Assembly: GCA_008632985.1 (NCBI GenBank)
Contig: QPGO01000327.1
Span: forward strand, 1 to 54,166
Direction: 5' to 3'
DNA from: Psammoneis japonica
Taxonomy: Eukaryota
Length of the DNA: 54,166 nt
Each line of letters opens with the position of its first letter. The first letter of the stretch is position 1. Both the position numbers and the translations under genes were made by a program. Shown piece by piece: positions 2,900 to 47,025 of this stretch. Under the pieces are notes generated by a model, which was not told the origin of the DNA, did no database searches, and saw only the letters and a program-made list of their open reading frames with translations.

Positions 2900-2914
2900 C
2901 ACACACACACACAC
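2900..2914 (+). repeat. (CA)n microsatellite at the gap edge
   Basis: cacacacacacacac directly after the N run. Confidence 0.8.
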
Positions 2915-5900
2915 TTTTTTTCAAAGTCACACCTCCTGCCTGGTGTGTGGGGCTGCTCTGCTTGCTGCCTGCTGGCTGTGTGTTTGAGCTGGTGACTGGG
3001 CTGCTTTGCCCCACACTGCACAGGCCAAGCTTGATGACAAGCACAAAGGCAGTTGCAAAAATTGCTGCTTGCAACTGCTGCAAGACTGTTCTTTCTCAAG
3101 CAGTGCATTCTTTGCACACACCATGAAATGTTCGAAGGGTCGCGCAAATCATGCACTCTTTCTTGTTTCAAGCACACACACACATGAGAGTTTTTCCATC
3201 CACAATTTGGCATCCACTGGCAAACACTGCACACAGTGAACAGCTTGTGCACAAAGTGTTTGTGCACTCGGCAGCATGAAGTTGGCAAGGAGCAATCAAG
3301 TGCACAACCCCAACCACATGCCAGGCCAGCACAGCATTTGCTCAGCGGACTCAGTGCAAGCAATGTGGGCTTGTGCAGTGTGCAAGCACATTGTTTGTGT
3401 CATGCACCCTCACCTCTAAAAGGCTTGCACTGTGTGCACTGCAAGGCATTTGCTGTTTTGCCAGCAGCACAGCAGCGCATGCTGCAGCAACTTGCCATTG
3501 CCACCTGGTGCCCCAGGCAGCTGTCAGCACAGGAGCAGGCACAAGCAAATGACATGCAAGAAAGAGGCACACATTGGGGTTTGTCATTGCTCTCAATGGG
3601 GGGCACTTGCCAACAAGTTTGGCAATCTTGCCATGAAAGCAGCAAAGGACACCACAGTGTGCAAGATGAAAATTTTTAAGAAAAATTGTGTTTCTGAGAC
3701 ACACAAACAAAGCCAAGTGTGTTTGCAGCTGTGAGACATGTGTGTGGCACACTGGCCACATGTGGGGCAGTGGCCAAACTGTGGCATGGTTTTGTGTGCT
3801 GGGGAAATGCACACTGCTTGTTGTGAACAGACACCCTGTCACATGCAGAGAGATTTGACAATCTCTCACACACTTTTCATCTGATCTGGCATGTGCTTGT
3901 TGCCATCCCAGGTGTTGTTGGATCATCCAATGGCTGCTGATTTGCAAGGTCATGAGCAGTGCTGTGCTGCACCATCTCTTTCCCATGTCATGTGCATTTG
4001 ATGGTTTTCCACTGAGATGTGGCCATCATCACCACATCTGCCATTTTTCTTTCTTGACTGCAGCAATCACAATGGCCACCAAACACACACCAGAGCTCTG
4101 CACAGGATTTTGATTTGTTTTTCCCAGCAGAGCCATGGTTCTGAGGAGCACAAATGCCATTGATTTGGTTGCCTCATGCCTGCACATGCACCCAGATGCA
4201 TTTTGTTCCAACAAGACAGGCCCAAATCCAAAGTTCTTTTGAAATAATTTTTGCACACCTTGATCTTAAGAAAAACACTCTTGTGATTCTTTGTCTGGAC
4301 CAGCCACCAACAAAGCTCCTCCTCTCTTTGTCAGGTTTTTCCAATGCCCTCGAACTTGTCTTGACAAGGCCAATCTTTGCAAGGTTGTGATTGAAGTGCC
4401 ACAAGATGGTGCCAGCATGTGTGGGCCAATGAGATGTCTTCTGTGTTTGTTGTGACAAATGAGAACAAGACACTTTCTGCTCTTTGCTGCAAGTTGTCTT
4501 CCTCACCCCCCACCTTTTGATGTGCTGGCTGAGCTTCTGGTTCAGCCCTTGAAGAGGGTTCTTGAGGAGGCTGGGCATCTCTTGTGGTGCCAACAACTGC
4601 TTGGCAGCCCCAGCAATCAACATGTTTGTGCCGCACACACAAGCACACAAAGGGCACACCAAATTTAAAAACCATGCCAACCCAGTGCTTGGTGTTTGCC
4701 TCCACCAACAAGCATTCTGGTGAAACAAATCAAAACTCCTGTCAGTCCTCTCATTGCCTGCATGGCTGGTCAGGCTTGCCAAGGTCTCACTGTCAATTCT
4801 GCTGCTTTTGCTGGCAAGCTGTCAAAGAGTGCAGATCATCAGCCTGGCTGTGTTGGATGCAATGAAAAAGAGAGGTCTGTTGGGTTGCAGCAAACAACCA
4901 CCACTTGTGTGTCCTCCCTGGCATTGTTTTTGTTTCTTCCAAGGCTGCCCACTGAGGAGTTGGCTTTGCTGCTGTTTTTTCTTTTCACCAGGAGGTTGTT
5001 GTGACAAACACATGTGTGTGGACCCAGGTGGCAAGCAGCAGAGGATGATGATTTCTTCAGTGAGGAGAACCCAAATGTGACATTTGCCCATCTGGTGCCA
5101 GCACTTCTGGTCAATGTGTGGACCTGTGTGAATGATCACATCTCATCATTGAGAACATGATCTGGGCAAGATGCCAGTCAGTGCTGATCTTCACATTTGG
5201 CTCAGGCTGTGTTTTTCTGCTGCTCTGCCTGTGAATCAAGCTGTGCTTTCTGAGGACCAACAGGCTGCCCCAGCCAATGGATTTTACTTCAACACCATGT
5301 GCCTTGAGTTGCCATCTTTTGGTGTTTGCTTGCCAGCATGCCACGCACATTCCTTGGTGGTTTCCTTGCCCCCATGGTGTGAGAGAGACATTCTTTGACA
5401 GGACAACAATGTGGACAAGGTCAAGATTGCAAAGCACATCTGTTTTGAGGAAGGCACAAATGTTGCTCACATGCAGCACATGATCATGATGTGTTTCATT
5501 GAGCTTGTGATGAGTCGCTGAGGCTTGCAGCCACTTTTGTGCTGCTGCGCCATCTTTGCACACATTTGCCAACCAAGTGTCTGACATCATTGCTTGTGTT
5601 TGTTCTTTGCAGGCCTTGTTGTGTGCCACCTCTTCCCAACAATGAACAAGCACACACCATCAGACATCTTGGCTGTCATGACAATCTTTGGTGGAACACA
5701 TCTGCTTTAACTTGTCTGGATTGTGGGGAGTCTGGCAGCAACATGGAGGGATTTGATTGCATGGCAAGCACTTGCACAGGTTGCTGTTGGCTCTCTTTGT
5801 GATTGTTCTTCAGCTGCATGGTCTCAGTGCCCACTGTGGAATTCACAGAAAGGTGCTCAACATGCAGCAACAGGATGGAACAACATCAACCACCTGGTGG

Positions 5901-8199
5901 ATGAGACAACAGAGACCAAAAGCAATGAAACAATGCAGCCACCAGAGATGCTTGTGAGCAGAGGAGAGAACAGCAGTGTTGTTGTCAATGTGGAGTTGGG
6001 TGAGAAGAAGGGCCAAGACCACCTGCAAGTGCAGGACTGCACCCAAGGACTTCCAAAAAGGTGACTTGTGTTGCACCAACTCTGTTGCTCTCTGAATCAT
6101 TTGCTGGCCTTGCAGTTCCCTGCATGTTCACACTGCAGCAATCTAGAAGTCTGCTGGATCTTTTTCCTTCAATGACAACAACTGGGCCTGCAAAATGGAA
6201 GAGACTGGGCAACAACCCAGAGTCAATGAGATGGACATTTTTTTCAGGCATGGGAACTGGCGTGGCACCACACGCAGATTCAGTTCCAGACATGTGTGGT
6301 GGTGCACTCCAAATTGTCATGCAAGAGATGATGGGTTGAAGTTTGAACAGCTTCAGTTGCAGATGTGACTGGACGCTGTGCTTTTTTTTGGCTCTGTGCA
6401 GTCATTTCATTTTTTCATCATCACTTCACACAAACCCTGCCTTGGAGTCCTTCATTTTCACCACCATTGCTTTTGTGCCACACACTTAAAAAAGATTGCA
6501 ACAGCCCATGGAAACCAAGACACCAGCCCGGGTTGTGCACATCACACATTGCTTTTTGCTTTGATTCAGCCAGACCCTGGTGTCAATGCTGTGGGAGTTG
6601 TGAGGATGGATGCCAACAACAAAACTGCTCCCCATCATTTGGAAAGAACATTTGAAAACAGGCGCTTTGTTTGAGATGTGTGTTTTTGCTGTGTGGATGA
6701 GGGGTGGAAAAGATGCAGAGCCAAGCTTTGATTTGACATCAAAGTGCAAGCCATGTTGTTGTCTGTTTTGTTGTTGATTGTCGCTCACTGGATTTTGTGT
6801 GACACAAGTTGGAGAGAATGAAAACAGACACAGCACTGCCCCCTCCACAGTGAGAACAGCACCTCTTGTCAATCTGAGCTGGAGAGAGCAGTGTGTGTGA
6901 ACCAGACAAACACCATCACTCAGAAGCCACAGCATCTGCTCTTGTGCACAGCCAGGTTTCTTTTGTTTCTTGTCTTCCAGTGGATGTTCCAACAGCCTCA
7001 CTTGCATTGCAGTGTGTTTCGTCTGTCATTGTTGTTGTGCTTTGCCGTGGTGAAGCACCAAAAATCGGCACCCAAAACAGAAAGGAACCCGGCAATTGAG
7101 AAACCCGGAAGCATCTCCAATCTGTGACAAAATCATGCAATTTTTGAACATGCATGACCGAAGGTCATGCTTTTTTCGTCTGTCCTTGTGTCTTCGCTTT
7201 TACCCCCACAGCGTGAAATTCTCAATCTGTGGTGGTCGGAGTTGCACAAATGCGCTCTGTCGACAATGACCCGCTCACCATCGTTGCCGCTTGTGTGGCA
7301 TGGCACTTTCATTGACGTGGGCACATCCTTCATTGTCTGACACACCTCGTGATGTGTTGGTGGATTGCTGAGGTGGCACATGTGGCATTGACGGTTGCCG
7401 TTTGTTCAAGCGCCGATGATTGAGGATTTCATTTTTGCGCAGAATTTGTGTGGATGTCTGCAGGGCATCATTTTTGGTGTCAAGAGCATGCACTCGATTT
7501 GAGTGCCCCAAGTTTGTTGTGGATGATGACATGTTCCAGCTCCAGGTGGGACCTTGCACTGCTGAGCTGTGACACAATTGCTTCTCATCATCCGTCCCAT
7601 GTTTTGCACGCACATTTCTGCGTGCTCTGTTGTAAAAAATTGTTCCACACTGCCTGTTTTGCGAAGCCAAAGGCTTTCTGTAACACCCACATTTGTGTCA
7701 ACAAAAATGCACTGGGTGCATTCTTTGATGTCTGAAGAACACACCCGGGCATGCTGTGAAGAATGCACTTCAAGTGTGGAGGAGGAGACACGTTCGCAAA
7801 ATTGCCTCTTTTTCTGTTGGCGATCATTCATGTGTCCATTGCTTGACAATTTTGCTGCGGAGCTTGCACGCAGAATTCTACAGGCCCAATGTCACAAAAA
7901 GTCCCACCCAGGACTGGAACCCGTCTGATCCAGATTGTTGCATTTTGATGTCCAGTTGATGAGACGTGTCGATTCATGCCTTGGTGTTGCAGCACAGAAC
8001 AGTGTGGGAGCAACGCAAGCAGCTTTCATTGCCATGGCCGTGTCATTTTTTGCGTCAAAAATTTGGTGAGGGTCATTCTCGTTTTTGTGTGAGATTTTCA
8101 GATCCATTCAATCTGTTTTTTGTGGATTTTCAATGGGGTGTGTGCACACCTGCGTCACATCCGTTGAATCCCATGTGCAACACTCAGCTCTGCAGCGCC

Positions 8200-8610
8200 A
8201 GTTGCAACTTTCTCTCTGGGGTCCTTGAGGTTATGAATGCAAACTTTCTTGCTGGTGTTCCTGACGTTCCATGCACGCAAACTTCTCGAGCTTGCGTTCC
8301 GGGCGGGGGGCCACAAACTTTCTCACGGGGGCTCCTGACGCTGGCCTCTAGAAACTTCTCACGCTTGCGTTCCTGGGGGGCTGCAAACTTCTCTTGGGGC
8401 TTCCTGACGCTCTACAAACTTCTCGTGCTTGTGTTCCTTGGGGGCTGGAAACTTTCTCGTGGGGGTTCCTGGTGCTCTACAAACTTCTCGTGCTTGCTTT
8501 CCTGGGGGGCTGCAAACACTTTCTCGCGGGGTTTCCAGACGCTTTGCAAACTTCCTCACGCTTGTGTTCCTTGGGGCTGCAAACTTTCTCTGGGGGTTCC
8601 TTGGGTGCTG
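8200..8610 (+). repeat. Degenerate tandem minisatellite, about 65-70 bp unit made of two related subunits of about 32 bp
   Basis: aaactt(c)ctc(g/a)..gcttg.(g/t)ttcc recurs at about 8279, 8352, 8416, 8481 and 8548, alternating with aaactt(t)ctc..gggg..tcc(t/a)gacgct-type subunits. Confidence 0.85.
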
Positions 8611-9389
8611 AGACAGGGGATGGAGCAGTTGTTGCATGCGATGCACTGCGTTGGATGGAGACATTTCAGACAGGGGATGGTCGAGTTGCTGCGGTGCACA
8701 AGTGGCTGTCCACCCCTGCGGGCAACACATCATAAATGATCACATTGAAGCCGGGAGCTGCTGGAAAAAACGATTGTGCTGCTGCGGCACAACTTGATGA
8801 CACGTGGCGCCAGGCGCCATGTGCGTCCTGTGCATTGGGGGGGGGGGGGCAGACAGACGCCACCCGCAGCAGCACATGCATTGCCACAGATGCCAAACAC
8901 CCAAATCACAGCCTCACATGCATTTGACTCAATGCACAGATTAGGATTTAGGATTGTTGGCAACTGATTGGCATGAGAAAATGCCACTTTAGACAACAGT
9001 CTTGGTGCAACTGGTTGTTCGTGTGAAACGCACAACTCGGCTCAATCTTCGGCTTACGATTCGTCGGCATGTGGTGCCGGCACGGTGACATGCAGTCGTC
9101 GTCTGCTCGTGTTTTTCACCGAAAAAAAGCGCGAAACGATGCAAGACGTTTTTTCCAGCAGCTCCCACAAAAAGTGTCTACATTTTCGATCGCTTGACAA
9201 AAAATGATGTTTTTAAAATCAACACAAAATTGTTGGTCGAAAAGGACTGCCACGATCGCCGATGCCACCTTTCCAGATTTTTCTGTGACCAAACGGTTGA
9301 AAACTCTCGCTGCCATCATAGAGTTTAATCTCTGCTGCCGTGATCGTGCCGCTGAAACTGTCAAACAATCACAAAAGCTGAACCGAACA

Positions 9390-10832
9390 ATGACATCGTA
9401 TGAAATTCCGCAGCTGGCTGTCAGCACGAGCCTTTCGACTCTGTCTTTGTCGTCGGTTGGCTTTAGCACCCCCATGAACGCGACGAGGACGTTGAAAGAA
9501 CTGCACGAGGGAGCACAACTTGCACCTCCTGCAAAAGCTGATCAATTTTCCGTTGCAGAAATGGAGCGACAAGTGAATGGTTTGTTAGCTCCCGGGCATT
9601 GGGATGGCCTTGATTCGATTGGTCATGCAAAAACATCATTTCTTGTCATGCGCGAGCAACATGAATTGCTGTCGAAGCTCCTCAATGCGACACCGGAAAA
9701 GGTAGCTCAAGCATTTCATTGTGCGTTGGACATGAACCACACATTTGGAAAGAGGCTCGATGCCCTCGTCAGGAAAGGGGGGGACATGTTTTTTTCGGAT
9801 GAGGATCGAGAAGTTGCCAGTTGCCCACTGGCAACGTTTCTGAGCCGCCACAAGGAGTTTTTCGATCCGGACGATGCCCCGACCATTTTCAACTGCCAGG
9901 ATGGGTTCAAACGGGTGGAAAAACCGTTGATCTGGATACAAGAAAATACTTCGACGGTGTGTTACCTTGTCACGGTAGCCTGTGCTGTCTTTTACAACCA
10001 ATGCATCCAAAATGGGGTGACTGCGAACGATGGTCCCGTTGCGGTTCAGAAGCACTCTCTGAATGTCAGCCGGTTCATGAGGGATGAATTCGCAAATGAA
10101 GAAATCTGTGCCAATGTCTTTATGACCCAAGGGGGTCATCCCGATGCAATGATGGAACGCCTTCTCAGGCCCCAGAACCCAAACAAGAAAAAGGTTGTAG
10201 AAGACTGTTGTCTTGACGTCACCATGTCCATTGACTTGATTTTTGCGAATGTCAAACATTGGCTTGGCAAGCATGGTGCGCTTGTGGCTTCTGACTTCAA
10301 AATGTTCCCAAAGCATGTGGCGGACAAAACAAAGTGTGTCTTTCATGGAAACTGGAACGACCTCAAGCAAGACGCCATCGAAAGGGAACTCCAAGAAGCC
10401 CCCATGGATGTCGACGAATGCAACAATTTCTGGGGTCTCCCCCCAAACGACATCCAACTTCATGCTTTTCTCATCATCGGTGTACGACGTACGACAGGTG
10501 AGGATGACATGGGCGGGCTCGCGTTTCTCATTCAGGATTCGTCGGATGAAAGACCGTTTGTCATTGTTGGCCTGGATTTGCCAGTTTCTGCTGGAGTGGA
10601 ACGGTTGCATGCTGTTGCACAGGATGTGGCGTTTGACTCGGAAAACTTTTGTCATGATAGAACAGCCAGTCCGGCCTTCATCATGAGTGGGGGTCACAGT
10701 CCCAGAATCTATGACATCCCCTCGAGCGACAGCAGTGAGGAGGAGAATCTTGAGGAGAGCAACATGGTGAGGAACTTCCATCGCTGTTGGACTCCCATTG
10801 ACCCCGCTGAGATTTCTTGCATCAAAACATAA
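9390..10832 (+). CDS. Papain-like (clan CA) cysteine-protease-fold protein, partly eroded by mutation; may be a pseudogene in the making
   Basis: Open frame 9204-10832, plausible ATG at 9390. Motifs occur in papain order: WIQENTSTVCYL (Q...C), QGGHP, LHAFLIIGVR (cf. NHAVLIVGY) and FLIQDSS (cf. WLIKNSW). Only 4 Tyr in 542 codons. Confidence 0.55.
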   Translation: MTSYEIPQLAVSTSLSTLSLSSVGFSTPMNATRTLKELHEGAQLAPPAKADQFSVAEMERQVNGLLAPGHWDGLDSIGHAKTSFLVMREQHELLSKLLNATPEKVAQAFHCALDMNHTFGKRLDALVRKGGDMFFSDEDREVASCPLATFLSRHKEFFDPDDAPTIFNCQDGFKRVEKPLIWIQENTSTVCYLVTVACAVFYNQCIQNGVTANDGPVAVQKHSLNVSRFMRDEFANEEICANVFMTQGGHPDAMMERLLRPQNPNKKKVVEDCCLDVTMSIDLIFANVKHWLGKHGALVASDFKMFPKHVADKTKCVFHGNWNDLKQDAIERELQEAPMDVDECNNFWGLPPNDIQLHAFLIIGVRRTTGEDDMGGLAFLIQDSSDERPFVIVGLDLPVSAGVERLHAVAQDVAFDSENFCHDRTASPAFIMSGGHSPRIYDIPSSDSSEEENLEESNMVRNFHRCWTPIDPAEISCIKT

Positions 10833-10991
10833 TTGTGATGAAATGCTTTGCGCTTCCATTGCGTGACATGAATGTGTGTGATGTTGGCAATGGAGATGTG
10901 ATGACGTGAGCTGTAGCACGTGACAGAGACGTTCAAAAAGACTCCACAAAAACAGGTGAATGAGTTCAAAAATGAAACTGAAATTTTGCTG

Positions 10992-11437
10992 GGGCACACT
11001 GAATTAATCTCACGTATTGGGCGGTGCCCCTGACCCCACTTTCACCCCAGATTGTCAAAATGTGTAAAACACCCCTGTTTTGTAAAACGCCCTAGTAACA
11101 AGCAGCGGCTTGGGTCGTCATGGTGCTTTCGACAGTCGAGTCGAGCAGTTTTTGCTGTTTGCGCATTCAAATCGCGCGCACTGACAGTGAAAGTTCACTT
11201 CCGGGTTCCTTCTGGTTTTGGTTCGCCATCAAATATGACCGACGACTGACCGACGAATGCTCGAAAAAGCCTGCTACGTAGGATCCTACGTAAGATATAG
11301 GGTAATGAGCCAAAATGTGTGTTTTACACGACGAAGCACGTGTTTTACAGAATAACACGTGATTTTACGATTCCCCCCCTCCCCCCCCCTTCACCGCGAA
11401 GGTTGCGCCCAATACGTGAGATTAATTCAGCGCGCCC
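10992..11437. mobile_element. Non-autonomous TIR element (MITE) of about 450 bp, PIF/Harbinger-like
   Basis: Inverted ends: GGGCACACTGAATTAATCTCACGTATTGGGCG (10992-11023) versus reverse complement GGGCGCGCTGAATTAATCTCACGTATTGGGCG (11406-11437), 30/32 identical. Flanks CTG / CTA are a candidate 3-bp TSD. Subterminal inverted GTGTAAAACAC / GTGTTTTACAC. No ORF. Confidence 0.8.
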
Positions 11438-11449
11438 CTACCATCATGG

Positions 11450-14400
11450 TATCTTGAATCTACGCAACCATTTCAATGACACCGTGTAAATGGGGCTTCT
11501 AGTTGAGAGGAAAATGGGGTTTGCCATTCCTTGACAGCGGGGGAAAAAAGAACAACGTGTGTGTTCACCTCCACATGTCACCACATTGTGCCTTTTCTGA
11601 AACTGAAGTCGTCCGCAATGGGGCACTCGCCCCATCTCGTACACATGTTTCGAAAGATGACAATTGGAGACTAACAAATGTGGTGCCCAGCAAAGGCTCT
11701 ACAAAATTTCGCACCGCCGTTGCAGTTTTATGACGCACACAGCACATCATTGTTTCCGACAACCTTGCCGGTGCGTTGTTTTAATTCTGGTGGACACTGT
11801 CTGACGCTCCATGTGATCACAGTGGAAATGGTGCCGTTTGAGTTGAGGAATGAAATGAAGTTAGTTGGCCTGGGTTCCACAGTTTTCCCTGAGACTAAAA
11901 GGTGCTTCGTAAGAGGTGTGCTCGTTTTGGTCATCCTTCTTTGACGTTGCGTCTGTTGCGGATGCCAGCAAATCGAGAGGCGTCTCTGGTTGCATCTCCC
12001 GACTGTTCCACCATCGATTGGATCCCCTTGGCGCAAAAGTGAAGACCTCCAGTCTGCTGTGAACAAATCTCGGAGTCTTGCCTTGTGCAGCTCTGCCGGG
12101 GCCAAATGGATCTTGAGCCAACAGCGCAATGACCTCTGGCTGTCGCGTCAAGAGTTTCTCCATTCTGGCGGTTCGCCACCTCGCCTTGCATGCAATGGCA
12201 AAAACCAGACTCTCCAATCTGATCTTGGAAGATGGAGAGGCAACACTCTCCCACACTCGTTTGGTCCCTTGTTCAGTTTGCATTTCCAAATGCACTGATG
12301 CCAAGTCACCCCGTCCCGACTCCCCTCAAGGATTGGCTCCCACCTGAAGTCATGCATGCATGCTTGCAAACTTTCCTTGGCAGCTGCAAAGCCGCAAGCT
12401 TTGCTGCCGTCTGCAGAGCAGATGGATTCTGGTTGACAGAGTCTTGATTTGATCTTGGAGCGGCAATGCTCTCAGAGGCCAAGCTTCTGCAAAGTTGTTC
12501 ATTGAGAACTTGCCATGGCCAGCTCGGCTCAATGTCGGAATCAAGGAAACGGCCAAACATGTCATCACCATTGAAGCCACAAGCACCCTGAAACCAATCA
12601 GCAGCGCATCTGGCAAAATGATTCATTTTACAAGGCTGTGTCTTTTGTGAGTTGCAGTTTTTGTCACTGCCCCAAATGAACATGCAGGCATTTTTGTCAC
12701 GATCATGTCCTTGTCGTTGATTGGAAAAAGAAGAGCCCTGAGAACATTTGGCATTCTCCCCTTGTTTTGATTGTCATTTCCTGCTCTCTCAGCAAATGCT
12801 GGGTTCTGCATTGAAATGTTTTGCACTTGTGTGACAGCAAAAAAAGAAGTCATCAATGGGACTTGTGCTTCAATTGTGGTGTCAAAGGCAACCTCAAGAA
12901 GATGGGTCTGGGCAAGAGTGGGGGGCAGGTGTCAAGAAGCTTTCATTTGACATGAGATCTCATCCTGCTTGCCTGCATCCAAGAAAAATGTGACACAACA
13001 CCAAAAATTTTGCGAGACAACTGTCATGATGGCGTTGGCGGTGATGAAGATTCACATTGTCCCTTGTGTGCAGCAACCACTCAAGATGTTGAGCTCACCC
13101 AGATCTGGGTGCGTCATGCTGCAGTCATTTGAGGGAAGCCAGCAATTGTTTGCACTGAGCTTGAGCTCTGCAGAGAAGTCTTTCATTTGTTTCATGATGC
13201 TGGCATTTGTGTGGCGGTGCATCGTGCAGTGCACGCACAGCCAGATGACATGTCAGGAGCCCAAGGTGCACTTGGACCAATGCTGTGCATGTGCTCCACC
13301 TCCTGCATTCACCCCAGCATTGGCAGCACCTGAAGCCACAAGAAACACAATTTCCTTTGTCATCAACAAGGATTTTGTCCCTTCCATGTCAACTCACAAT
13401 GCTTGGCTGCTCTTTTCTCACCTGCAGGATTCGAGAAATGCTTGGGTCAAATTTCAATGTGCCGCTGGGCTGCCATTTGGCAACTCTTTCAAAACAATTT
13501 TTGCCATGACAAGCAAGCTGGGTCAGAGTTCCAACATGTGTTTCAAGCAAGCATGTTGCATCAAAGGACCTGACCAAACTTGCAGTTGCTCCCATGCTGG
13601 AAATTTCCACGTGTGTGCCAGTGTGGGGGTTGCAAGAAGACAACACCAGCTTGTTGTTGCACCAGCTGCACAAACACCATCCTTGCAAGCATGCAGGCTG
13701 TGCTTTGGATGTTCGTTCTTGCATGGTTTTTGACCATGTTGCAACCAATTGTGAGCAGGCATTTGCCTTGATCCTTGATGCAAATGAGCCCCACATCAAG
13801 TGGCAGAATCCTTTGCAGGCCTCAAATCAACACAAAGAGTTGCAAAAAGAGCAAGGACAAAAAACCCGCTGGATGCCTGGCCCAAACACCTTCTCCAAAG
13901 AAGGCCTCAATTGTTGCAAAGCCCCCACCCTGAACATGAGACCATGTCAACATGCCCTTCTTCTTGCAAGTTCCCATTTGCAAGGCAGAGGCAGTGCCCA
14001 AAGAACTGCAATGCATTGCAGTTTTCTGGGCAATCAAAGCAGGTCTAGAGTGGGCATCATCACTGGGATTGTTTGGCTGGCATGGGCTCAAGTTGAAACA
14101 CTGCACTCCCACTGCACATCACCAGTTTCCCATGTGTTTTACATGCAGAACAGTGAGGGTCCTCTTGCAGCAAACAGCACTTCAAATCTGGCATCTCTGA
14201 ATGCTCCAGGCACTGGGCCATCAAAAAAGTGCTGCCCCCTGGCTGTCAACCTTGTCTGGGTCTTGATGCAAATGCCAAAGCAAACTTGCAAACAACCCAT
14301 CAACCACTGTCTGTCCCATCAATCTGATTTGCTTGGGGTGTCATTGATTTGCTCAGAATGGCTCACACCAAGGCATGCTCCATTTGTGAGTCAGCAAGTG

Positions 14401-15270
14401 ACCCACCCCTTGACCATTGGAAGAGAAGATCTGTGACATCACCCTTGCCAAAAGCCATGAAAAAGAGCATGCATTTAGAGACCAGGTGTCTTGTGTGCAG
14501 ATTCAAGGAAGCTTCATTTTGATTTCACAAGTGGCTGAAAAGTTTTTTGTGCAAGTGAGTGGGTGTGTCAGTCACTGACAATTTCCAGCACAGAAATGCA
14601 CACAGGGAATGTGACAAGTCTGGGTGTTTGGCAGGACCTTGTTTCCTTGAATTTACATGAACAGAGCAACATTGGTCAATTTGAGACACTTCAGCATGAA
14701 GTGAACATTGAAGCAGCAACCAACCAAAGCTCAAAAACAATGGCAAATGTTTTGTTTGCTCTGTTGTCTGCAGAAACAGAGATGAAATGATGCACAATGT
14801 GTTTCTTGCTCCACTCCACAGACAAGCATTTGTGAAATTTTGCTGGACTGGGGTTTGCCGTTCAGCCATCTTTTGCATGTGAGCGCAGCTGTCACATGCC
14901 ATGATCGTCACGCCCAAAACAACCCCTGCAGTTCAGCATTCACACTTTTGCCTCTGAGCACTTCTTGACATTTACCCATGATGTGCTGATTGCTTGCATG
15001 TGCACAAACTGCCTGCACCTCAGAGCAGCATCATGACTTCACCGCTGGCTGGGCAGCTTTTCTGTGCGCACCGTCTCTCGCTGGTGGTGCACTCGCCATG
15101 CTGGAAACTTTTCAGCACTGACACATCAGAGCAGCCAGAGCCACGTTCTCTGCTCCACTCTGCTGGAGAGGGCTGTGTCTGTTGTCAGTCCTCCAGGGCT
15201 TTTTATCCTTTGTGGCAGAGGAAAAGCACGAGCTTGGCGCTTGGCACATTTTGTGTGCACTCGGATCTCA
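11450..15270. repeat. CpG/TpA-depleted island, containing fragments that look like a decayed minus-strand coding sequence
   Basis: Same dinucleotide signature, strongest at about 12300-15250. Protein-like minus-strand fragments (11861-12304, 12306-12683, 12623-12856) are broken by stops and shifts. Family not recognised. Confidence 0.65.
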
Positions 15271-15492
15271 CTTTCGCGCGAGCGCCGCGGTGTCGCGCGA
15301 CTCGAAGATCTGCCGCTCTGCCCTCTCGCCCGCCTCGTCTCTCGCGTGTCGACGATGAACGATGACCGTTAAAGATCGCAATCGACAACAACATTACAGG
15401 AGACGAAGCGTTCTCAACATTCAGCAGACAACTGTATTCATTCTGTATCGTATCTCTACCGCACTTCTATCCTGAAGTAATCGTTCCACACA

Positions 15493-16161
15493 ATGCGTTT
15501 CTGGACCGGACAAACACTCTTTGCATCATGCTTGTTATTGTTGCTGATGCTTGATTCGGCTCGCAGTAGCGAGGTTGTCGTGTTGACGGACGCCAACTTT
15601 GAGCACTTGACGCAAGCATCGACTGGTCAGACTACCGGCAAGTGGTTTGTCAAGTTCTTTGCACCCTGGTGCGGACATTGCAAACGCATGAGTGAAACGT
15701 GGAAAGAACTGGCTGCCGACATGGAAGCGAACCATTCGGACGATGGTATTGTCATTGCCGATCTGGACGGCACGGAAAACCGAGAAACCAATGAACGATT
15801 CGGAGTCCGGGGTTTCCCCACGTTGCTCTTTTTTGCGTCCGGCAAGGTGTACAAGTATCAGGGCGATCGGTCGTTGCAACACATGAAAGACTTTTGTCTA
15901 GGGGAATATGCTAAGGCTGAGGCTTCCGACATTGCTCCGCCGCCTAGTTGGATCGAAAAGCAGCGCAAAAAGTGGAAGAAGTTTTACAACCAACAAAAGC
16001 TGTTAACTGACTTGTCGGCTGATTTTGAACATATTATGAGGTTGAGGAAGAATGCGGCAGCCGTTTTGGTTGGCATAGGATTCGTAGCGGGTACTCTTGT
16101 GACTGTGATCATTAGCATTTTGTTTGGCCCCAAGACGGAGAAGAAGACTAAAGCGGACTAA
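15493..16161 (+). CDS. Membrane-anchored ER thioredoxin/PDI-family protein (TMX-like)
   Basis: Signal peptide, WFVKFFAPWCGHCK active site, VRGFPTL cis-Pro loop, C-terminal TM helix (AAAVLVGIGFVAGTLVTVIISILF) and KTKAD dilysine ER-retrieval tail. Confidence 0.93.
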   Translation: MRFWTGQTLFASCLLLLLMLDSARSSEVVVLTDANFEHLTQASTGQTTGKWFVKFFAPWCGHCKRMSETWKELAADMEANHSDDGIVIADLDGTENRETNERFGVRGFPTLLFFASGKVYKYQGDRSLQHMKDFCLGEYAKAEASDIAPPPSWIEKQRKKWKKFYNQQKLLTDLSADFEHIMRLRKNAAAVLVGIGFVAGTLVTVIISILFGPKTEKKTKAD

Positions 16162-18293: not shown

Positions 18294-18581
18294 GCTTCAA
18301 ACCTGTGGGCTCCTTGACCATGCCACGGATCTGTTCCGAGTAGCAAAGCATTGTTTTGCAAAGGTCCTGTAGTGCTTCTAACTGCTGCCATACTCTTGCT
18401 TGCTTCCAGGTGGTATCAGGTTATGACGATATGTTCATGCGCGTGCTCGCTCTTTTTGAGTCGTGGGGTGACGGGACTGAGATGATGCGTGCACGTCTCA
18501 GCCGCCGAGCACAACTCGAGGAAAGCCACAGCTTGCGAGGCTCACAAAAAAACACATTGTCGTTGCAACCAAAGAAGAACA

Positions 18582-19968
18582 ATGAACACCTACAAAATAA
18601 AGCAACGTGAGACCAACAAGCAGATCGAGCTGCTGCGATTGAAGAATCAATTAAAAGAACTGGAATCAGCCGTCGGAAAGGGAACATCGATGATTTCGCT
18701 ACTCATCCCGCCCGGCAACGCCCAGCTCATTCGTGCCACCAAGTTGCTCAATGACGAGTTGCGAGTGGCCACCAACATCAAATCTCGGGTTTAACAGGCA
18801 ATCTGTCCAGAGTGCAATCAAGTCGGCTCAGCAGCGACTCAAGCTCTACAACAACAGGTGCCCCGCAAATGGCCTAGTCGTCTTTTGTGGTCTTGCCGAG
18901 GTACAAGACAGCCGAAAGGAAAGGATGATAACGGTTGACCTTGAGCCACCTCTACCAGTCAAATTTTTTCTTTATCGCTGTGACAGTCGTTTCCATACAG
19001 ATCAACTAACTTCATTGTGCGTGGAGGAAGGTGAAGAGCCATACGGTTTTATTATCGTGGATGGTAACGGGGCGCTATTTGGTTTGCTACAAGGGTCGAG
19101 AAGAAGAGTTTTGCACAAGTTTTCAGTTGATCTTCCCAACAAGACTCGTCGCGGAGGTCAATCGGCTTTGCGTTTTGATCGGATCCGTGTAGAAAAGCGA
19201 AACATGTACCTACGCAAGGTCGCCGAGTTGGCCATGAATTCTTTTCTTTCCCACGGTGACAAGCCCAATGTGGCCGGTCTTGTCCTTGCTGGAAAAGCAG
19301 GCTGTAAAGACGACCTTGTCCAGAGTAGCCACTTTAAGCGTCTCCGCGCACATGTTGTGGCTTGTTTGGACGTGTCGTTTGGAGGAGAACGTGGATTTGA
19401 CCAGGCAATCGACAAAAGTGCTGAAACGATCGGATGCGTCACGCTGGTTCGCGAAAAGCGTCTGTTGGAGAACTTTTTTGAACACGTCGAGCGCGATACA
19501 GGAAAGTATTGTTACTCCATAAAGGAAACCTTGCATGCTTTAGAAATGGGAGCCGTGAAAGATTTGATTGTATGGGATGGTCTCGATGCGACCCGCTGCG
19601 AGATGCAAAACAAAGAAACAGGGGAGAATGTGGTTTCCTTTTTCTCCAAGGAGCAGGAGGAAACAAACATCTTCGCTTCATTTATAGTTACCAAGACGGA
19701 ACCACTCCTGGATTGGATTGTCGACCATTACAGCAGTTTCGGTTGCAACATGGAGTTCGTGTCAGACAGAAGCGGAGTCGGAAAACAGTTTGCCGCAGGA
19801 TTCGGCGGAATTGGTGGCATGATGAGGTGGCGAGTAGATTTTGAGTCATTGAACACTGGTAGCGATAAGGAGGAGTCCGAATCTGAACGAGAGAGCTCAT
19901 GCGATACGGAGGAGAAGGGCAAGGATGACTACCGGTATGATTTTGAGGACGGAGATTTCGCGTTGTAA
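18582..19968 (+). CDS. ERF1: Divergent eukaryotic peptide chain release factor 1, split by a +1 frameshift with an in-frame TAA at 18792-18794
   Basis: First frame (70 aa) holds GTSMISL and TNIKSRV, then a stop. The +1 frame continues NRQSVQSAIKSAQQRLKLY, NGLVVFCG, YRCDSRF, GGQSALRF, ALEMGAV and QFAAGFGGIGGMMRW, collinear with eRF1. Confidence 0.92.
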
Positions 19969-21582: not shown

Positions 21583-23603
21583 CTAAAACTGCTTTTCAGT
21601 CACACCCGCACCCATTGCTGCCGTCGACGAGGAGCCACCGCTGGCAACGGTCACCATGGAATCCACAAGTTCCGCTCCCGACCACTTTTGGTGTGTCAGG
21701 AGCTCCACCTTGCGGTCACGCTCTTTGCGCTGAATGTTTTGGACATAGGCCAGCATGCCACGGTCTCCAAAGGAACGAGCAAGTTCTGTAATGATGAGAC
21801 CATTGGAATGGAATCCAGCCAGCGTAATGAACTGCCAAGCGTATCCAAGACGACCCAAGTCGTCATTGAAGGAGGCAAGCTCTGCGTCCGTCATGCCAGA
21901 CGCGTCCCAGTTGAAACTCGGGCTAAGATTGTATGCCAGCATTTGATGAGGATACATTTTCTAAGTGTGAACAGAAAAGAAAAAAACATAAGGTAAGTGG
22001 ATGGGTATCATAGAATAACAAGCACTGCAACGACGCAGTACACGAAAATCCATATTATGCGGCCACATACCTTGACCCCCTCCGAAAACTTGCGAGCCTC
22101 GGGAATACCAGGCTTGGCGGTTTCCATCCAAATGAGATCCGCATATGGTGCATACGCCCTGGCACGTTGAATGCAATAATCAATGCCAGCCTTGAGGCGG
22201 TAGTATCCCTCACGGACACGGCAAAGCTCCCAGTCAAAGTAGACCGAGTTCTTTTCTCCAAAAATCGAGTCTGCAATCCTGCGTGCCTTGGCATTGCTGA
22301 GAGTGTTTGGATCACTTGCTTGCCACTGCTGCACCATTTGCTGCTTTTGCGCACTCGACACGTTGAGGGATGCAATCTTGGCCAAAACGGCCTCTCCAAA
22401 GGTCATGAGATTGGCCCGCTTGGTCCATTCTTGCGTCGCACGGTTGGCATCCTTGGCTCCCGCTACGGCGTCACGGAGCGATCCAACACCGCGAGTCGTA
22501 ACGCCCAGAATAAAGGGATGGTCACGACCGTCCACATTGGAATCCAACAAGGTGGCTGCTTCCGCGTCGGTACGAGCCACAAGGATCGTGTTGGTACCCA
22601 TCACATCACACGCCAGTCGGGCAGCCACAAGGCGATCTACATGTTCCTGCGTCGACACCAACACCTTGCCACCCATGTGTCCGCACTTTTTGGTTCCCGG
22701 CTTTTGGTCTTCAAAATGAATTCCAGCTGCGCCGGCTTCCAAAAAGAGCTTGACAAGCTTCATTACCGCGCTTAGCCCGCCATGTCCGGTATCACCGTCT
22801 GCCACGACGGGAACAAGATAGTCCGTCTTGGGACCGGGATCGGCGCCAGCCAAGAGCGCCTTGGTGCGTTCGTTGTGTTGTCGACGATCGTGGTGTTGCT
22901 GGGCTCGAACCAACTGGTCCACCTTGTTGGGGACCGTGTTCATGGGATAATCGGCAAAGTCTGGGCCGGGCTCGTTGGTAGTGGATGCCGTCGAAGAGCA
23001 CTGCCAACCCGACACGTAGATGCTGGACAAGTGAGGGGCCATTTGAATGACTTGGACGGGATCGAGAGCTCCAAACGTGTGAGAGTATCCACCGACCGAA
23101 CGGAGGGCAGTCAAGAGAGAGTAGAGCTTGTCGGATTGTTCCGATGAGAAGGCACAACTCGGTACGCACTGACGGCCACCGCGAGCTTCCAGCGATGGGC
23201 GGAGACAAGCCACGTCCATGGCTATTATGATAAGTAGAGAGAACATTGATCGACAGGGTATGACATACTTTGTTAGCAAAAGATTCGTTCCAACACATCA
23301 TATAAAAAACAAAAAAAATTAAAAACACGTCACTTCTTCAGTTTCAACGACTGACTTACCAGAGTAAGGACGCGTCGTGTGTCCCCACCGATTCTGATCA
23401 GACCACCATTGCTGAATAGCTGCAGCCTCTTGGTTGAGATTCGACAACTCTTGGGATGGGTTCGCAATCTTGGTTTGACGTGCAATCGGAAGCGAACGCA
23501 ATCCTCGGCTAACCTTGGGCGTCGTGTCGCTGCTGCTGTCTTTGTTTGACTCTCGGTTCACGGTAGCGACCATGGTAGACCGTGTCTTGACTATAAACGT
23601 CAT
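21583..23603 (-). CDS. ICL: Isocitrate lyase; exons 23603-23360, 23221-22071, 21960-21583
   Basis: Signature [12 protein letters not shown], plus [42 protein letters not shown] and [13 protein letters not shown] introns 23359-23222 and 22070-21961 restore a continuous frame. Confidence 0.97.
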
Positions 23604-23959
23604 GTGTCTCTACAATATATCAGCGACCTGATCTTGTTGAAATGGGAAGCCTGATGAAAACACACAACACGGAAATATGATCGCGTCGATGTTGTGATGC
23701 CAAGAAAAGAAATTGTGAGCGTCGGACGATGCCGATGGACTGTGCCAGTAACGAGCAGGTAGAAACATACGAGAACCACCGTAGAAAGCCAAACGGCATC
23801 GTCACATCGCGGGTGTCACGAGTGTCAAGACTGAATTTGCCTCCGATGCTTGACACGACCTGACGTCGATCTACCAATCAAAATGATTCAATTCGATGAC
23901 ACGAATCTTCTCATCTTGTCGACTCGAACGATTCAAAAATCCGACAAGAGAAACAGAGA

Positions 23960-24640
23960 TGAGAAAAGAGACAAAAACTCTGGCAGGCAACTAAATTCAT
24001 GGTGAGAAAGGATGTGCAAGGCTTCAAACAGCACAGAGCATTGCAAAGATGTGATGATCATCACAAAAATCACAGCAGCACACATGAACCTCTCAGGCAG
24101 AAGCAGCGCCAAGGACGAGGGCGCGTGCACCACGCACACAAACACAAAAAAGTGGTGCTGCAAGCATGCCCTGGCTGGAGCAACCAGCAAAAAAATTTAC
24201 ATGCTTGCATTGCTCTCTACATGTGTGGAATGCAATGACACCCCTTGCAGCACATTGATGGCAATCTGCATGCAACAATGTGGCGCCGCGCCAGCTTGTT
24301 GCAAAAAATTGGCTTTTTCATGCATGTGCTGTTTGGAGGAGATGCCTGGTGTCACTGGTGTGATGTCAGCAGCCTTTCCAACTGTGCGCATGCAAGCTTG
24401 GGCTCTTGGGATGTGTGCCTGCAATTTGCAGGTTGTGGAGAAGAAGCTCTGGTGCTCGCCGCCCTTGTGCACACACCAGCTGTGCTGTGAGGTGTCATGC
24501 GATGTGTGAGATGGCTGCCACCCTTCTGTCCTGTCTGCTTTGAACTTTGCCACACTTCCACCAAGTGTCTCTGACTCAATCAAATTGTCTTTAGGCCCTG
24601 TGAAATCATCGTGTGCACATGTTGCGATGCTGCACGGACG
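23960..24640. repeat. Small CpG/TpA-depleted island
   Basis: TG/CA-rich, almost no TA, Cys/His-rich spurious ORFs. Confidence 0.65.
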
Positions 24641-24783
24641 TTGGATGGATGCATGGACGGATGGACCCGCCCGCCCGCGCGCGCCCGCCCAGGAGGACAC
24701 GTTTCCGTCCGTCAGTCGTCAGGTTCCGTCGCTTTTGGCGCCACATCACGCGGAATCTTTGGCGGCGCGGCGGCGGCGGCCTT

Positions 24784-24962
24784 TCGGGCTTTGGATATAG
24801 CGGGGCGCGGGGGGTCCCCGCGATTTTCCTGTGATCGTGCCACGTAGACTCACCCATGGCCCAAGCAGTACATCGTTCACGCGCAGTATCGCGTAGTGCG
24901 GGGCCCCGCCGCGGGGGTGCCGTCTTTTTTCCTGAAATCGCCCCGCTATATCCAAAGGCCTA
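24784..24962. mobile_element. 179-bp GC-rich MITE, hAT-like
   Basis: Perfect 19-bp inverted core CTTTGGATATAGCGGGGCG (24789-24807 / 24939-24957), extending to 22/24 at the ends. Flanked by the 8-bp direct repeat GCGGCCTT (24776-24783 / 24963-24970). Confidence 0.75.
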
Positions 24963-27329: not shown

Positions 27330-28628
27330 ACTGTCTCGTTGCGCTTACTAAACTCACGTTCGAGTAACAACGTACTCAAAAGAAGCCAATACATTCCAAT
27401 GTGGGACCTGTAATTTCAATTTGGGACTGTGTATAAAAAAGAATGTCATAATGCAATAGAAAATTGTCATCCAAGGTTTGAACGCCGAATTCTGTTCTAG
27501 TTAGTGGGATTTTTGGGCAATGTGTAACTTGAGCTACTAGTGAGCAGTACATTGCTACAGATGTATGCTGAAGTCACAACTAATTAATTGAAACTACATT
27601 GCAAAAACTATTCTAGATTCTAGATCGAATAGAACTTGATTTCGTGAAAGGGTGACCTGCGAAAAGCTAAAGCACTCGAGCGTAGCAGCGTAGACTCTAT
27701 TTCTTTCAATCACGAACGAATTTTTCGATGTCCGTATTGTTTCGTGATCTCGCAAGAGACAAACGATACACATCGGAGCAATTCTTATAGATGCTGTAGC
27801 ACTGCATCGTAGCTATTGACACGTCAATTATGCAGGTACATTATTTACTTTGGATCGAGACTTATGGACGAAGGAAAGTGAACTAGGGTGAAAGAGGGTA
27901 AATATCACTTGACATTTCCGCTGATTTAATGTTTTAGATACTGTGCTGTTAGAACAGTCGTGCATTGTGTAATGATCGGAGTGTGACACATAGCACTCAT
28001 GACATTTCCTAATGTTGCAATTAGATAAGTAGGCGTCTGCAAAGGCAAATATGAGTGAGGCGTAAAGAAATTGCTGTTTAACAAACAAGACTTTGGAAAT
28101 AATTGGGGGACGGGACCGAAGTAGTTAGTAGAGCAAGAGAGCCGTGCGAGAAAGGAACAGAGGGTGAGCGTGACTAACGTTTGAAATTTGGGCGCAGTAC
28201 CGAAACATGACCGATTGCCGTTACTCTACTTTGTATACCAGTACGAAAAATTATCATTTCTACGTGGTTTTTTGTTTCCCTAAGTAATCCCTCACGTAAC
28301 CTTATGTAACGCATTCACGTAGCTTCGGGTTTCTTAGGGTAATGACTTTGTACAAAAAAATTTGACACAGAATATTTAATGACCATCTTATTTATGCCTT
28401 TCATCAAACAATTTGTCATCGCAGAGCCAACGATGACCCAACACAAAACGCGGGCGTTGGTCACTCCACGGGATTATCGTGTAGAACTTGTACCAGGGAT
28501 TTCGAAAAGTTCGCGATCAAAGGTACAACCACTTTCACACGGGATGACTCAAGACAACAACACACTCTCATTCATTTGCAAGTCATAGTCTCCTTCGTTG
28601 TCCAACATCTCGGGTTTGTAGTACCATC

Positions 28629-40929: not shown

Positions 40930-41570
40930 CAGGCTGAACTCGAAGGAAACGATGATGAAGCATACAATACTGTGAAAAAAATTGGTGATGTGCCAGGAAG
41001 AAAGTTTCACATGGTTACATGTCATCAGGCCATGCCTGCAAATGCAGTCTCCACACACTCTACAGGTGGTGTGTGCGAGCACTGCCACACGCGAAGAATG
41101 GTCGACGCATGGACTCACGATGGAGAGTGCTGCAGATGTGCCACATCTGAAAATCTATCACAAAGCAACAGCATTTGGGGCCTCTTCTGCAACTGTCTGA
41201 CCTCTCATCACCATCTTGCGAAATGGCACACACCTGGCCATTGGAAAAAAAAGGCAAAAAAGCAGAGGACAAGAAGGACCTCAAATGCCGTTGGCTGGAA
41301 AGCAGTGTCTGTGCAAAACAGGCTGCTGTTGCTTCCTTTGATGCTGATTGAGACCCCAAAAAGGGGGGGCGGCATGTTGGCTGCTTGCATTGAGTGTTTC
41401 CACCTCCCACAAGCAACTGCAAAATGTGGAGAGCTGGCGGGCATGTTTGACAAAGAAGAAACGAACTTTGCTGACCCCCTCCCCTCACAGTTGTTTTTCC
41501 ACAGTTGTGGATTGAAAGGCATGTCAGGGGCATTGTTAAGAAAGCTCACTGCAGGCAGCAGCTGGTGAGA
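40930..41570. repeat. Small CpG/TpA-depleted island
   Basis: Same TG/CA-rich signature; a few TA persist near the left edge. Confidence 0.6.
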
Positions 41571-46392: not shown

Positions 46393-47025
46393 GAAAATCA
46401 AGATGTTCAGAACACAGTAAGGTTACGAAATACGAACTTGCCTAAGCGTTTTTGTCATGGCGCGGTGAGAACATCTATTTTTGAGGGCAAGTTGAAGTTG
46501 TCAAGGGCGGGGGGAGTGCAGAGAGTGGGAGCGCGCACACCCACGGTGCAACCTGCACTTCATGACAATCGATGTGTCGATTGTCGATTGCTCTTTGTCG
46601 CTCGCCGACTCTGCTTCCTCTCGTGTCTGATGCGCTCTTAGTCGAGCACTCTGGTTGGTTGTGGAATGGGCCACGAGCACCAGACCTCGAGCTAGAGGGC
46701 TCCCATTCCGGGGACCAGGAATTGGAGCTCTGGCTGGAGAGCCGCAAAGGGTGGGCTGTGCAGGCTGCAAACGAAACTCGCTCTCTCGTCTCATCAACGT
46801 GCAGTGCAACATTGATGAAGAAAAAGAGTGAGTTTGCTGTGACTCAAATGGTGCTTGTAGACTCATGCACTGCTTCTGCGATGTGAGCAGCGTCGCAAAG
46901 CAGATCGCAAAAACAACCCCCCACTCACACAGGGGGGAGGCACAGACCACTGCATCTCATTGGTCTCCGATCTGCGCCAAAAAGTTACAATGGGGCTCCC
47001 AACATGGGGGTGCAAAGTTGCAAGC

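Follow-up and report, generated by a model that had tools for sequence, protein, structure and literature searches.

Inspection of a 54,166-nucleotide stretch of DNA from the diatom Psammoneis japonica (GenBank assembly GCA_008632985.1, contig QPGO01000327.1, positions 1 to 54,166 of the forward strand; the whole stretch is called the window below) revealed islands in which the dinucleotide TA is almost completely erased, and in part of this DNA CG is erased as well. The lost TA was converted to TG and CA, and this conversion was independent of the loss of CG. We read the islands as a new and more extreme case of the TpA hypermutation described for the chlorarachniophyte Bigelowiella natans, overlaid on ordinary decay of CpG. 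In the explanation that we favour, with a probability of roughly 0.6, the adenine of TpA would be edited enzymatically in chromosomal DNA, on both strands and at locally targeted places, and 5-methylcytosine (5mC) would be deaminated in a methylated core. New here are the presence in a diatom, the near-complete erasure of TA, and the overlay with CpG decay from which it can be separated. The analysis covered this one window, the contigs of one public sequencing run (X1) and protein relatives.

Nested loss of TA and CG

Ratios of observed to expected dinucleotides (O/E) were profiled in 500-bp windows over the 53,364 called bases, an N gap occupying 2098–2899. At 3001–7000, the O/E was 0.00–0.19 for CG, 0.00–0.06 for TA and 1.7–2.3 for TG/CA, and a similar profile was observed at 12501–15000, 24001–24500, 41001–41500, 47001–47500 and 50501–52000. 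The flanking genes had CG O/E of ~0.8–1.3 and TA O/E of ~0.4–0.8. Thus the kilobase islands poor in CG and TA and rich in TG/CA, which had been reported in a preliminary description of the window, were recovered at closely similar coordinates. A two-state hidden Markov model (HMM) over pyrimidine–purine (YR) steps called TA-depleted DNA in eight segments of 0.5–7.9 kb each, 17,575 nt in all or about one third of the called bases:

2900–9933, TA-depleted segment, left edge hidden by the N gap at 2098–2899
9995–11000, TA-depleted segment
11917–15367, TA-depleted segment
23790–24792, TA-depleted segment
41063–41534, TA-depleted segment
46482–47436, TA-depleted segment
50180–52499, TA-depleted segment
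52822–54165, TA-depleted segment, running to the end of the window

Six CG-depleted cores, with 9,785 nt in all, were called by the same model, each nested within a TA-depleted segment:

2900–7015; 12554–15040; 24135–24607; 41121–41566; 46978–47393; 50333–52179, CG-depleted cores

The loss of TA was wider than that of CG (17.6 versus 9.8 kb). It was found to extend past the CG loss at 7016–11000 and 11917–12553, and to occupy an extra block at 52822–54165 where TA only was depleted, none of which was in the preliminary description. The proposal made there that both losses act on the same DNA holds for the nested cores, but not for the remainder, where the loss of TA was complete while CG was intact.

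Three classes of DNA were pooled from these calls. Background DNA (35,748 nt) contained 1361 TA (O/E 0.56) and 2068 CG (O/E 1.01), with CA/TG at O/E 1.15. DNA depleted in TA only (7,810 nt) contained 44 TA (O/E 0.10) and 439 CG (O/E 0.83), and DNA depleted in both (9,779 nt) contained 28 TA (O/E 0.04) and 66 CG (O/E 0.12), with CA/TG at O/E 1.92/1.89. Over the islands, TA O/E was 0.04–0.10 and CA/TG O/E 1.4–1.9; TA was ~6–14 times rarer than in the neighbouring genes, and TG and CA were increased to match. The Poisson p values against background frequencies were 2e-75 for TA in the TA-only class, 7e-120 for TA in the cores and 2e-157 for CG in the cores. The surviving sites (71 TA and 66 CG) showed no clear context rule, and TA was lost in every flanking context. 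Because TA was lost where CG was intact and over a wider stretch, the TpA process is separate from the CpG loss.

The islands are no assembler quirk of this record. The contigs of X1, which were built independently, covered 2900–6272 (3373 bases) with 16 differing letters and 12729–15980 with 25 differing letters, and X1 carried 75% of the words sampled from 3000–9000. Since these contigs reproduce the islands, the TA- and CG-free sequence was recovered by a second assembly route.

Mutational origin and direction of the TA loss

The islands were produced by mutation rather than by composition or selection. The density of YR steps was 241 per kb in background, 240 in TA-only DNA and 247 in DNA depleted in both; for purine–pyrimidine (RY) steps the values were 241, 241 and 247, and for purine–purine plus pyrimidine–pyrimidine (RR+YY) steps 517, 519 and 506. 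Because these densities are equal, the classes differ only by transitions within YR steps. The GC content was 0.480 in background, 0.522 in TA-only DNA and 0.480 in DNA depleted in both, and this rise and return is what TA→TG/CA plus CG→TG/CA predicts. GC was not lowered, as had been stated in the preliminary description.

An explanation other than mutation would be foreign DNA or functional sequence in which TA and CG are avoided through origin or selection, or a sequencing or consensus artefact at modified bases. RNA viruses and some phages do avoid particular dinucleotides, and the library type of X1 is not on record. We regard this explanation as extremely improbable, since the purine/pyrimidine step densities match those of the host genes, Tyr was replaced by Cys or His in a host-type gene fragment, tandem copies differ by CA/TG doubles (both described below), and the islands recur in the independently built contigs, which in the core at 2900–7015 (core 1) show 16 differing letters over 3373 bases.

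The direction of the change was obtained from the following fragment:

11930–12619, minus strand, fragment of lipase maturation factor (LMF1; PF25179), a truncated pseudogene with two frameshifts and no upstream part

The fragment spans the equivalent of residues 380–619 of a 619-residue homologue with both LMF1 Pfam domains. None of the seven Tyr residues of the nearest full-length homologue (P0131; aligned residues 394–619) was kept: five were Cys (TGT/TGC), one was His (CAT) and one was Arg at a frameshift junction. Across six homologues, 0 of 6 consensus Tyr columns were kept versus 117 of 155 other consensus columns (Fisher p 3e-4), and Arg (CGN) was kept in 15 of 17 consensus columns. 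The fragment contained no TA, 25–26 CG and 61/63 CA/TG. As the Tyr codons were converted and Arg was retained, both TA→TG and TA→CA happened here, and they were complete while CG was intact. These results support an A:T→G:C transition at TpA, polarised by the change of Tyr (TAY) to Cys (TGY) or His (CAT), and with it the distinct process at TpA that had been postulated in the preliminary description. In the best-preserved segment of the fragment, 59 of 66 residues (89%) were identical to P0131, and Tyr→His/Cys made up 3 of the 7 differences. The loss of TA was fast relative to general divergence, because it was complete in a fragment that still matched its homologue so closely. As a separate observation, the fragment has CGA at 12173–12175 (minus strand), at the frameshift junction where the homologues have Tyr; TA edited on both strands would give CG, but no TA/CG pair occurred among the tandem copies.

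A second reading frame was affected:

9198–10832, plus strand, intact 544-codon open reading frame (ORF) of an orphan family (P0121), inside the TA-only zone

The TA O/E by codon phase in P0121 was 0.16/0.27/0.14, versus 0.3–0.7 in ten neighbouring genes. Because the three phases are depleted alike, the loss of TA is not codon-driven. Tyr made up 0.7% of P0121 versus 2.4–3.2% in its three homologues, and Cys 3.1% versus 0.6–1.9%. At nine positions a homologue had Tyr and P0121 had His or Cys; as the homologues are only 25–45% identical, these positions were not used as proof. Antisense to P0121 lies a 455-codon ORF (9636–11003, minus strand), which exists only through the loss of TAA/TAG stops.

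The comparison of tandem copies demonstrated that the mutation acted after duplication. The units at 47020–47492, 53005–53529, 53360–54164 and 8278–8540 differed mostly by transitions. In eight partly overlapping copy pairs, 27 CG-versus-TG/CA differences, 7 TA-versus-TG/CA differences (TA/TG 5, TA/CA 2) and 12 adjacent CA/TG doubles were found, the rest being 28 other transitions and 41 transversions. The doubles exceeded the numbers from permuted transition positions (2 versus 0.15, p 0.0065; 3 versus 0.23, p 0.0015; 5 versus 0.36, p<0.0005). Independent decay of the same ancestral CG or TA in each of two copies would be expected to give such doubles. The three units of the 156-bp array differed by CG/TG, CG/CA, TA/TG and CA/TG changes; one site there was CA/TG/CG and another TA/TG/TA.

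The same kinds of change were observed between the X1 contigs and the window, where the counts come from 40 listed differences of 1118 and are lower bounds. There were at least four CA/TG doubles (3763/4, 3785/6, 7960/1 and 8139/40), at least eight CG-versus-TG/CA places, and at least five places (6921, 8122, 11616, 11929 and 11958) at which X1 contigs had TA and the window TG/CA, with no reverse case among the differences listed. At 2900–6272, the 16 differing letters amounted to 14 events (4 CG singles, 2 doubles, 4 other transitions and 4 transversions). From these small numbers we infer that any TA or CG newly made from CA/TG by ordinary mutation is soon resolved again, in half of the cases to the other partner. 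That doubles are common at only 0.5% divergence, and that the process is still running, would follow from such quick re-resolution.

A detour through RNA was considered, in which an ADAR-like enzyme would convert A to inosine (I) at UA in double-stranded transcripts and reverse transcription would carry the change into DNA. The preference of ADAR for a 5' U, quoted in the B. natans preprint (10.64898/2026.01.13.699255), would fit, as would the 5' truncation of the LMF1 fragment, since retrocopies are often truncated in this way. Against such a route, no reverse transcriptase or other retroelement domain was found in Pfam scans of the ORFs and six frames, both strands were equally affected, and identical kinds of change separate tandem copies at one locus as well as two versions of a single locus, which argues for action in place on DNA. 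Moreover, ADARs are not known outside animals. Editing at the RNA level is thus very unlikely.

The process was strand-symmetric, with CA/TG counts of 1135/1184 in the cores. AA and TT were not depleted, their O/E being 1.18/1.17 in background versus 1.29/1.22 and 1.24/1.28 in the islands. This bears on a mechanism offered in the preliminary description, a Pol-eta-type patch repair in which T:G mismatches from deamination of 5mC would be repaired with miscopying at WA (WA→WG), as in somatic hypermutation. The constant nesting of CG-depleted cores in TA-depleted DNA would suit this mechanism, but AA/TT, the other WA motif, should then be depleted too. Furthermore, the loss of TA was complete over 7.8 kb at a CG O/E of 0.83, including the LMF1 fragment with Arg CGN kept in 15 of 17 columns, and in B. 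natans the mutations fall on TpA only (10.64898/2026.01.13.699255). The Pol-eta mechanism is accordingly disfavoured and has little chance of being correct. Processive editing of one strand was tried as a further candidate and rejected: a runs test of CA versus TG order gave z of −3.5 only in core 1, a gene region gave z of −2.7, and there was no signal in the core at 12554–15040 (core 2) or the 50-kb core, and the test was not used.

The edges of the islands can be sharp. A stretch devoid of TA begins at 11911, where the LMF1 reading frame ends, and a TA-depleted block stops at 15367, 114 bases ahead of the next gene (15481). One insertion within the erased block was spared:

10989–11437, MITE-like insertion (MITE, miniature inverted-repeat transposable element) of 449 bp, with 33-nt terminal inverted repeats (10991–11023 / 11406–11438)

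Two X1 contigs were found without it (joint 10988→11438). It contained 20 TA (O/E 0.72) versus O/E 0.12 in the left flank, and its CG content was normal too. Either it postdates the episode or it is exempt.

These edges and the spared DNA are relevant to the idea that no targeted defence exists at all. TpA and CpG would then be intrinsically hypermutable and repaired only in transcribed or open chromatin, so that any long-silent DNA slowly drifts to TG/CA. In agreement with this idea, the islands lie between genes or in unrecognisable DNA, and edges are near gene ends (15367 versus the gene at 15481; 11917 versus the pseudogene end at 11930). However, TA was normal in other non-coding DNA (O/E 0.85 at 27501–28500) and in the MITE-like insertion, the loss was complete in a fragment still identical at 59 of 66 residues and hence fast, and P0121, an apparently intact ORF with homologues, was hit in all codon phases. 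Untargeted drift is therefore unlikely, although it deserves some weight.

Known systems and the proposed mechanism

In a 2026 bioRxiv preprint on mutation-accumulation lines of B. natans (10.64898/2026.01.13.699255), two integrated viral regions, one a giant-virus insert of 186 kb that is silent and single-copy, the other a virophage insert of 25 kb, are reported to mutate at ~6e-7 per site per generation, ~1000 times faster than the rest of the genome, in bursts limited to certain blocks and lines. It was found there that 230 of 231 new mutations were A>G/T>C, all 230 of them at TpA; that the genome has 124 clusters of TpA-poor, CpA+TpG-rich windows; and that DDE and reverse-transcriptase domains are over-represented among its 324 very TpA-poor coding sequences. 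The authors propose that an ADAT2-like adenine deaminase works on the DNA. The author of the preliminary description knew of no named system of this kind; this no longer stands, because TpA-only hypermutation is described in the preprint. No report of TpA loss in diatom DNA was found in full-text literature searches, in which the B. natans preprint was the only description of the process.

The window was filed with the B. natans process because the footprints match in the change, the symmetry, the block structure and the extremity. In both, TpA is changed to TpG or CpA on either strand in kilobase blocks, TpA-poor and CpA+TpG-rich windows are clustered, and the bias is towards GC. The TA frequency was 0.0018 in the TpA-poor coding sequences of B. 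natans versus 0.003–0.006 in the islands here. Nevertheless there are several differences. The lineage is a diatom (stramenopile) here versus Rhizaria there. Viral inserts are the targets in B. natans, whereas the targets here yielded no domain of viral or transposon type and include a fragment of a host gene. The erasure here is near complete (O/E 0.04–0.10), whereas the active giant-virus region of B. natans still has a Rho of 0.45. The nested loss of CpG has no counterpart in the preprint text, in which a term search gave no occurrence of 'CpG', 'diatom' or 'stramenopile' (10.64898/2026.01.13.699255). Finally, de novo rates were measured in lines of B. natans, whereas here a footprint was read from sequence alone.

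The CpG part of the pattern fits ordinary decay of methylated CpG by deamination of 5mC. The change of CG to TG/CA in silent, repeat-like cores and the matching gain of TG/CA are as expected from it; the difference is that such decay leaves TpA untouched and accounts for only 9.8 of 17.6 kb. According to a published survey, diatom transposons are CG-methylated, this being maintained by DNMT5a, and DNMT4, a RID-related enzyme whose function is given as unknown, occurs in 31 of 60 diatom species (PMC9998398). Methylation of the cores is predicted.

Fungal repeat-induced point mutation (RIP, a process linked to the RID/DNMT4 family) resembles the present case in that non-genic or duplicated blocks are hypermutated by transitions, tandem and repeat DNA is hit and coding capacity is destroyed. 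But RIP changes CpA to TpA, enriches TA and lowers GC, whereas in the islands TA disappears and GC stays level or rises. RIP was rejected as the family to which the islands belong, as it makes the TpA that they lose. That RIP runs in the opposite direction had been noted in the preliminary description, and this was borne out by the 6–14-fold depletion of TpA and the GC of 0.480–0.522 versus 0.480. As to duplication, tandem arrays and a region with many contigs were affected; two cores had no second copy in the window or in long contigs, and the MITE-like insertion was spared. Accordingly, the association with repeats claimed in the preliminary description stands for the many-contig DNA at 6.7–12.5 kb and for the tandem arrays, but not for the large cores, each essentially in a single contig and with no transposon domain, nor for the MITE-like insertion with its normal TA. 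The animal deaminase defences ADAR (A→I) and APOBEC (C→U), which are discussed in the B. natans preprint, are similar in the context-specific deamination of invading or repeated nucleic acid, and the preference of ADAR for the 5' neighbour matches TA. They act on RNA or single-stranded intermediates, usually with strand bias, whereas the change here is symmetric and in place in chromosomal DNA.

Under the favoured explanation, two context-specific transition processes would have run almost to completion on islands of diatom nuclear DNA. The first would be a TpA-directed A:T→G:C change, turning TA into TG or CA equally on both strands, in blocks of a few hundred bases to >8 kb, which comprise DNA of repeat families, tandem arrays, a piece of a gene and sequence of no recognisable kind. 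It would be the same kind of locally targeted hypermutation as in B. natans. The chemistry behind it would most likely be an enzymatic deamination of DNA at the adenine of TpA, giving inosine, which is read as G; taken on its own, this choice of chemistry is tentative and perhaps more doubtful than not. The second process would be the decay of CpG to TpG/CpA within part of the blocks, through deamination of 5mC in methylated diatom repeats. Together they would erase TAA/TAG stops, Tyr codons, Arg CGN codons, and TATA-like and other motifs, with GC unchanged. The host would direct the first process at foreign or silenced DNA, and it may be active at present.

The chemistry might instead lie in the thymine. 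A TET/JBP-type oxidase could make 5-hydroxymethyluracil (5hmU) or 5-formyluracil at TpA, which by mispairing with G would cause T→C on either strand. TA is palindromic, and T→C on one strand is A→G on the other, so the strand symmetry fits both chemistries. The 5hmU of dinoflagellates and base J of kinetoplastids favour TpA sites, and 5-formyluracil induces T→C mutations. Still, the literature matches listed for diatoms and 5-hydroxymethyluracil were all on dinoflagellates, none of them reporting the base in diatoms, and the authors of the B. natans preprint prefer the ADAT2-like adenine deaminase (10.64898/2026.01.13.699255). We consider a thymine route improbable.

Several points weigh against targeted editing of TpA as set out above. 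It is drawn from a single window. X1 is a coded public run that is possibly from the sample behind the window assembly and so gives no independent biological support, and its library type, as mentioned, is unrecorded. Counts in most tests were small (7 Tyr, 14 events, 12 doubles), and there is overlap between the pairs of tandem copies. One clear target, LMF1, is a host-gene fragment, and a Pfam search with 30 ORFs and 18 six-frame read-through translations gave no domain of viral or transposon origin in the islands. The two large cores are not visibly repeated: for each, essentially a single X1 contig provides the cover, and they have no similarity to each other. The MITE-like insertion occurs in multiple contigs and is TA-normal inside an erased block, so that repetition is not sufficient for targeting. 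That the cores are transposons is a guess, and foreign DNA as the target is unproven.

A broader proposal is that TpA editing is an old, widespread defence of algae of the stramenopile–alveolate–rhizarian (SAR) group, represented in both Rhizaria and stramenopiles, and that in diatoms it marks foreign, repeated or silenced blocks independently of CpG methylation and faster than it, and is still active. We consider this plausible enough to state, with the balance somewhat against it. If it were true, CA/TG flips between locus versions would be a live signature, new TA or CG being resolved at once, and much of the repeat content of diatoms would be hidden from homology-based annotation.

If the reading as a B. 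natans-type process holds, TpA hypermutation of one chlorarachniophyte would also exist in diatoms, a major and genetically tractable algal group. It would then represent a eukaryotic defence, either old or recurrent, in which A:T pairs are mutated, the mirror image of fungal RIP, and a diatom could serve as a system for finding the enzyme and the targeting signal. There are practical consequences as well. Hypermutated repeats without protein-domain signal lead to underestimation of repeat content; the loss of TAA/TAG gives long false ORFs on both strands (such as the one at 9636–11003), a trap for gene prediction; and affected genes drift from Tyr towards Cys/His. Because CpG and TpA decay can be separated along one block, they may provide a relative clock or a chromatin map from sequence alone.

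Contents and surroundings of the islands

The islands and their parts were as follows:

2900–7015, core 1, with 9 TA and 17 CG in 4.1 kb (CA 502, TG 516)
7016–10988, TA-only zone, TA O/E ~0.03–0.22 and CG O/E ~0.5–1.4, matched by many X1 contigs
8278–8601, tandem array of ~five 65-bp units with G-runs, 78% matching, inside the TA-only zone
12554–15040, core 2, with 6 TA and 19 CG
15041–15367, TA-only rim of core 2, followed by a thioredoxin-like gene at 15481
23790–24792, short island with CG-depleted core 24135–24607, upstream of the isocitrate lyase gene (22008–23279, minus strand)
41063–41566, short island depleted in both TA and CG (TA segment 41063–41534, CG core 41121–41566)
46482–47492, island between the CRAL-TRIO and AAA_28 genes, with three 156-bp tandem units at 47020–47492
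50180–52499, 2.3-kb island with CG-depleted core 50333–52179 (4 TA, 15 CG)
52822–54165, TA-only block running off the window end, with 7 TA and 91 CG and internal repeats ~87% identical

To the left of core 1, the depletion starts already at ~2016–2050, before the N gap. At ~6.7–12.5 kb, many different X1 contigs match at ≥80% likeness (11 at 7233, 14 at 7280 and 28 at 7584), with many loose ends and with joints at 7535–7925, and because of these contigs, ends and joints the region was regarded as repeat-family DNA. The summed contig depth there (for example 56,109 in bin 7359–7995) does not measure copy number, and no use of it was made for that purpose. Within 7535–7925, short stretches are common to very many X1 contigs, with loose ends at 7535, 7574, 7637, 7830 and 7922–7925, and joints skip or invert 60–300 bases, which points to a nest of small, highly repeated units. 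A 28-base word from the most repeated stretch had no match in metagenome contigs.

The six-frame translations through stops covered 2900–9100, 11000–15400 and 50300–52500, and LMF1_C was the sole Pfam match in the scans of island ORFs and six frames. Rfam and tRNA scans returned nothing, and no long terminal repeats or terminal inverted repeats bounding the blocks were found. A blastn self-comparison, and a comparison after purine/pyrimidine recoding, which ignores all transitions, showed no similarity between islands except the known tandem repeats. No RNA data were listed for 3000–9000, which is not evidence about silencing. Nor is the coverage by run X2, whose kind was guessed as DNA: 2900–6721, 12455–13728 and 14366–15002 were not covered and the genes were.

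P0121 has three relatives in public assemblies (family P0121–P0124), the best being P0122 (43% identity over 84% of the query, E 2e-105). No Pfam match and no PDB sequence match was obtained for P0121, and an alignment search with the family found nothing in metagenome or viral contigs. The Atlas offered no more than a weak pointer (0.88) towards viral papain-like peptidases, and the AlphaFold model had a mean pLDDT of 35.9. The C-terminal stretch of P0121–P0124 has an H...G...Q-[ND]-S-W-like pattern, which presumably recalls papain-type peptidases. Two ORFs without any tyrosine occupy 52814–54164 (plus strand; units 53005–53529, and 53360–53588 versus 53936–54164). Their product would be Ser/Glu/Arg-rich, with no Pfam match, and their coding status is that of candidates only.

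The window is diatom nuclear DNA. The named best matches of the isocitrate lyase ORF (22008–23279, minus strand) were all from diatoms (Nitzschia, Cyclotella, Thalassiosira, Mediolabrus, Epithemia and Attheya), with 74–82% identity. The remaining genes are of ordinary eukaryotic kinds and have long exons, encoding a bicarbonate transporter, an ankyrin protein, an eRF1-like factor, an F-box protein, an FG-GAP protein, an aspartokinase/homoserine dehydrogenase, a CLC channel, a CRAL-TRIO protein and an AAA_28 protein. At 18306–18838, between the genes for the ankyrin protein and the eRF1-like factor, contigs of both X1 and X2 carry 21 other letters in place of the 531 bases, a structural difference between versions of the locus.

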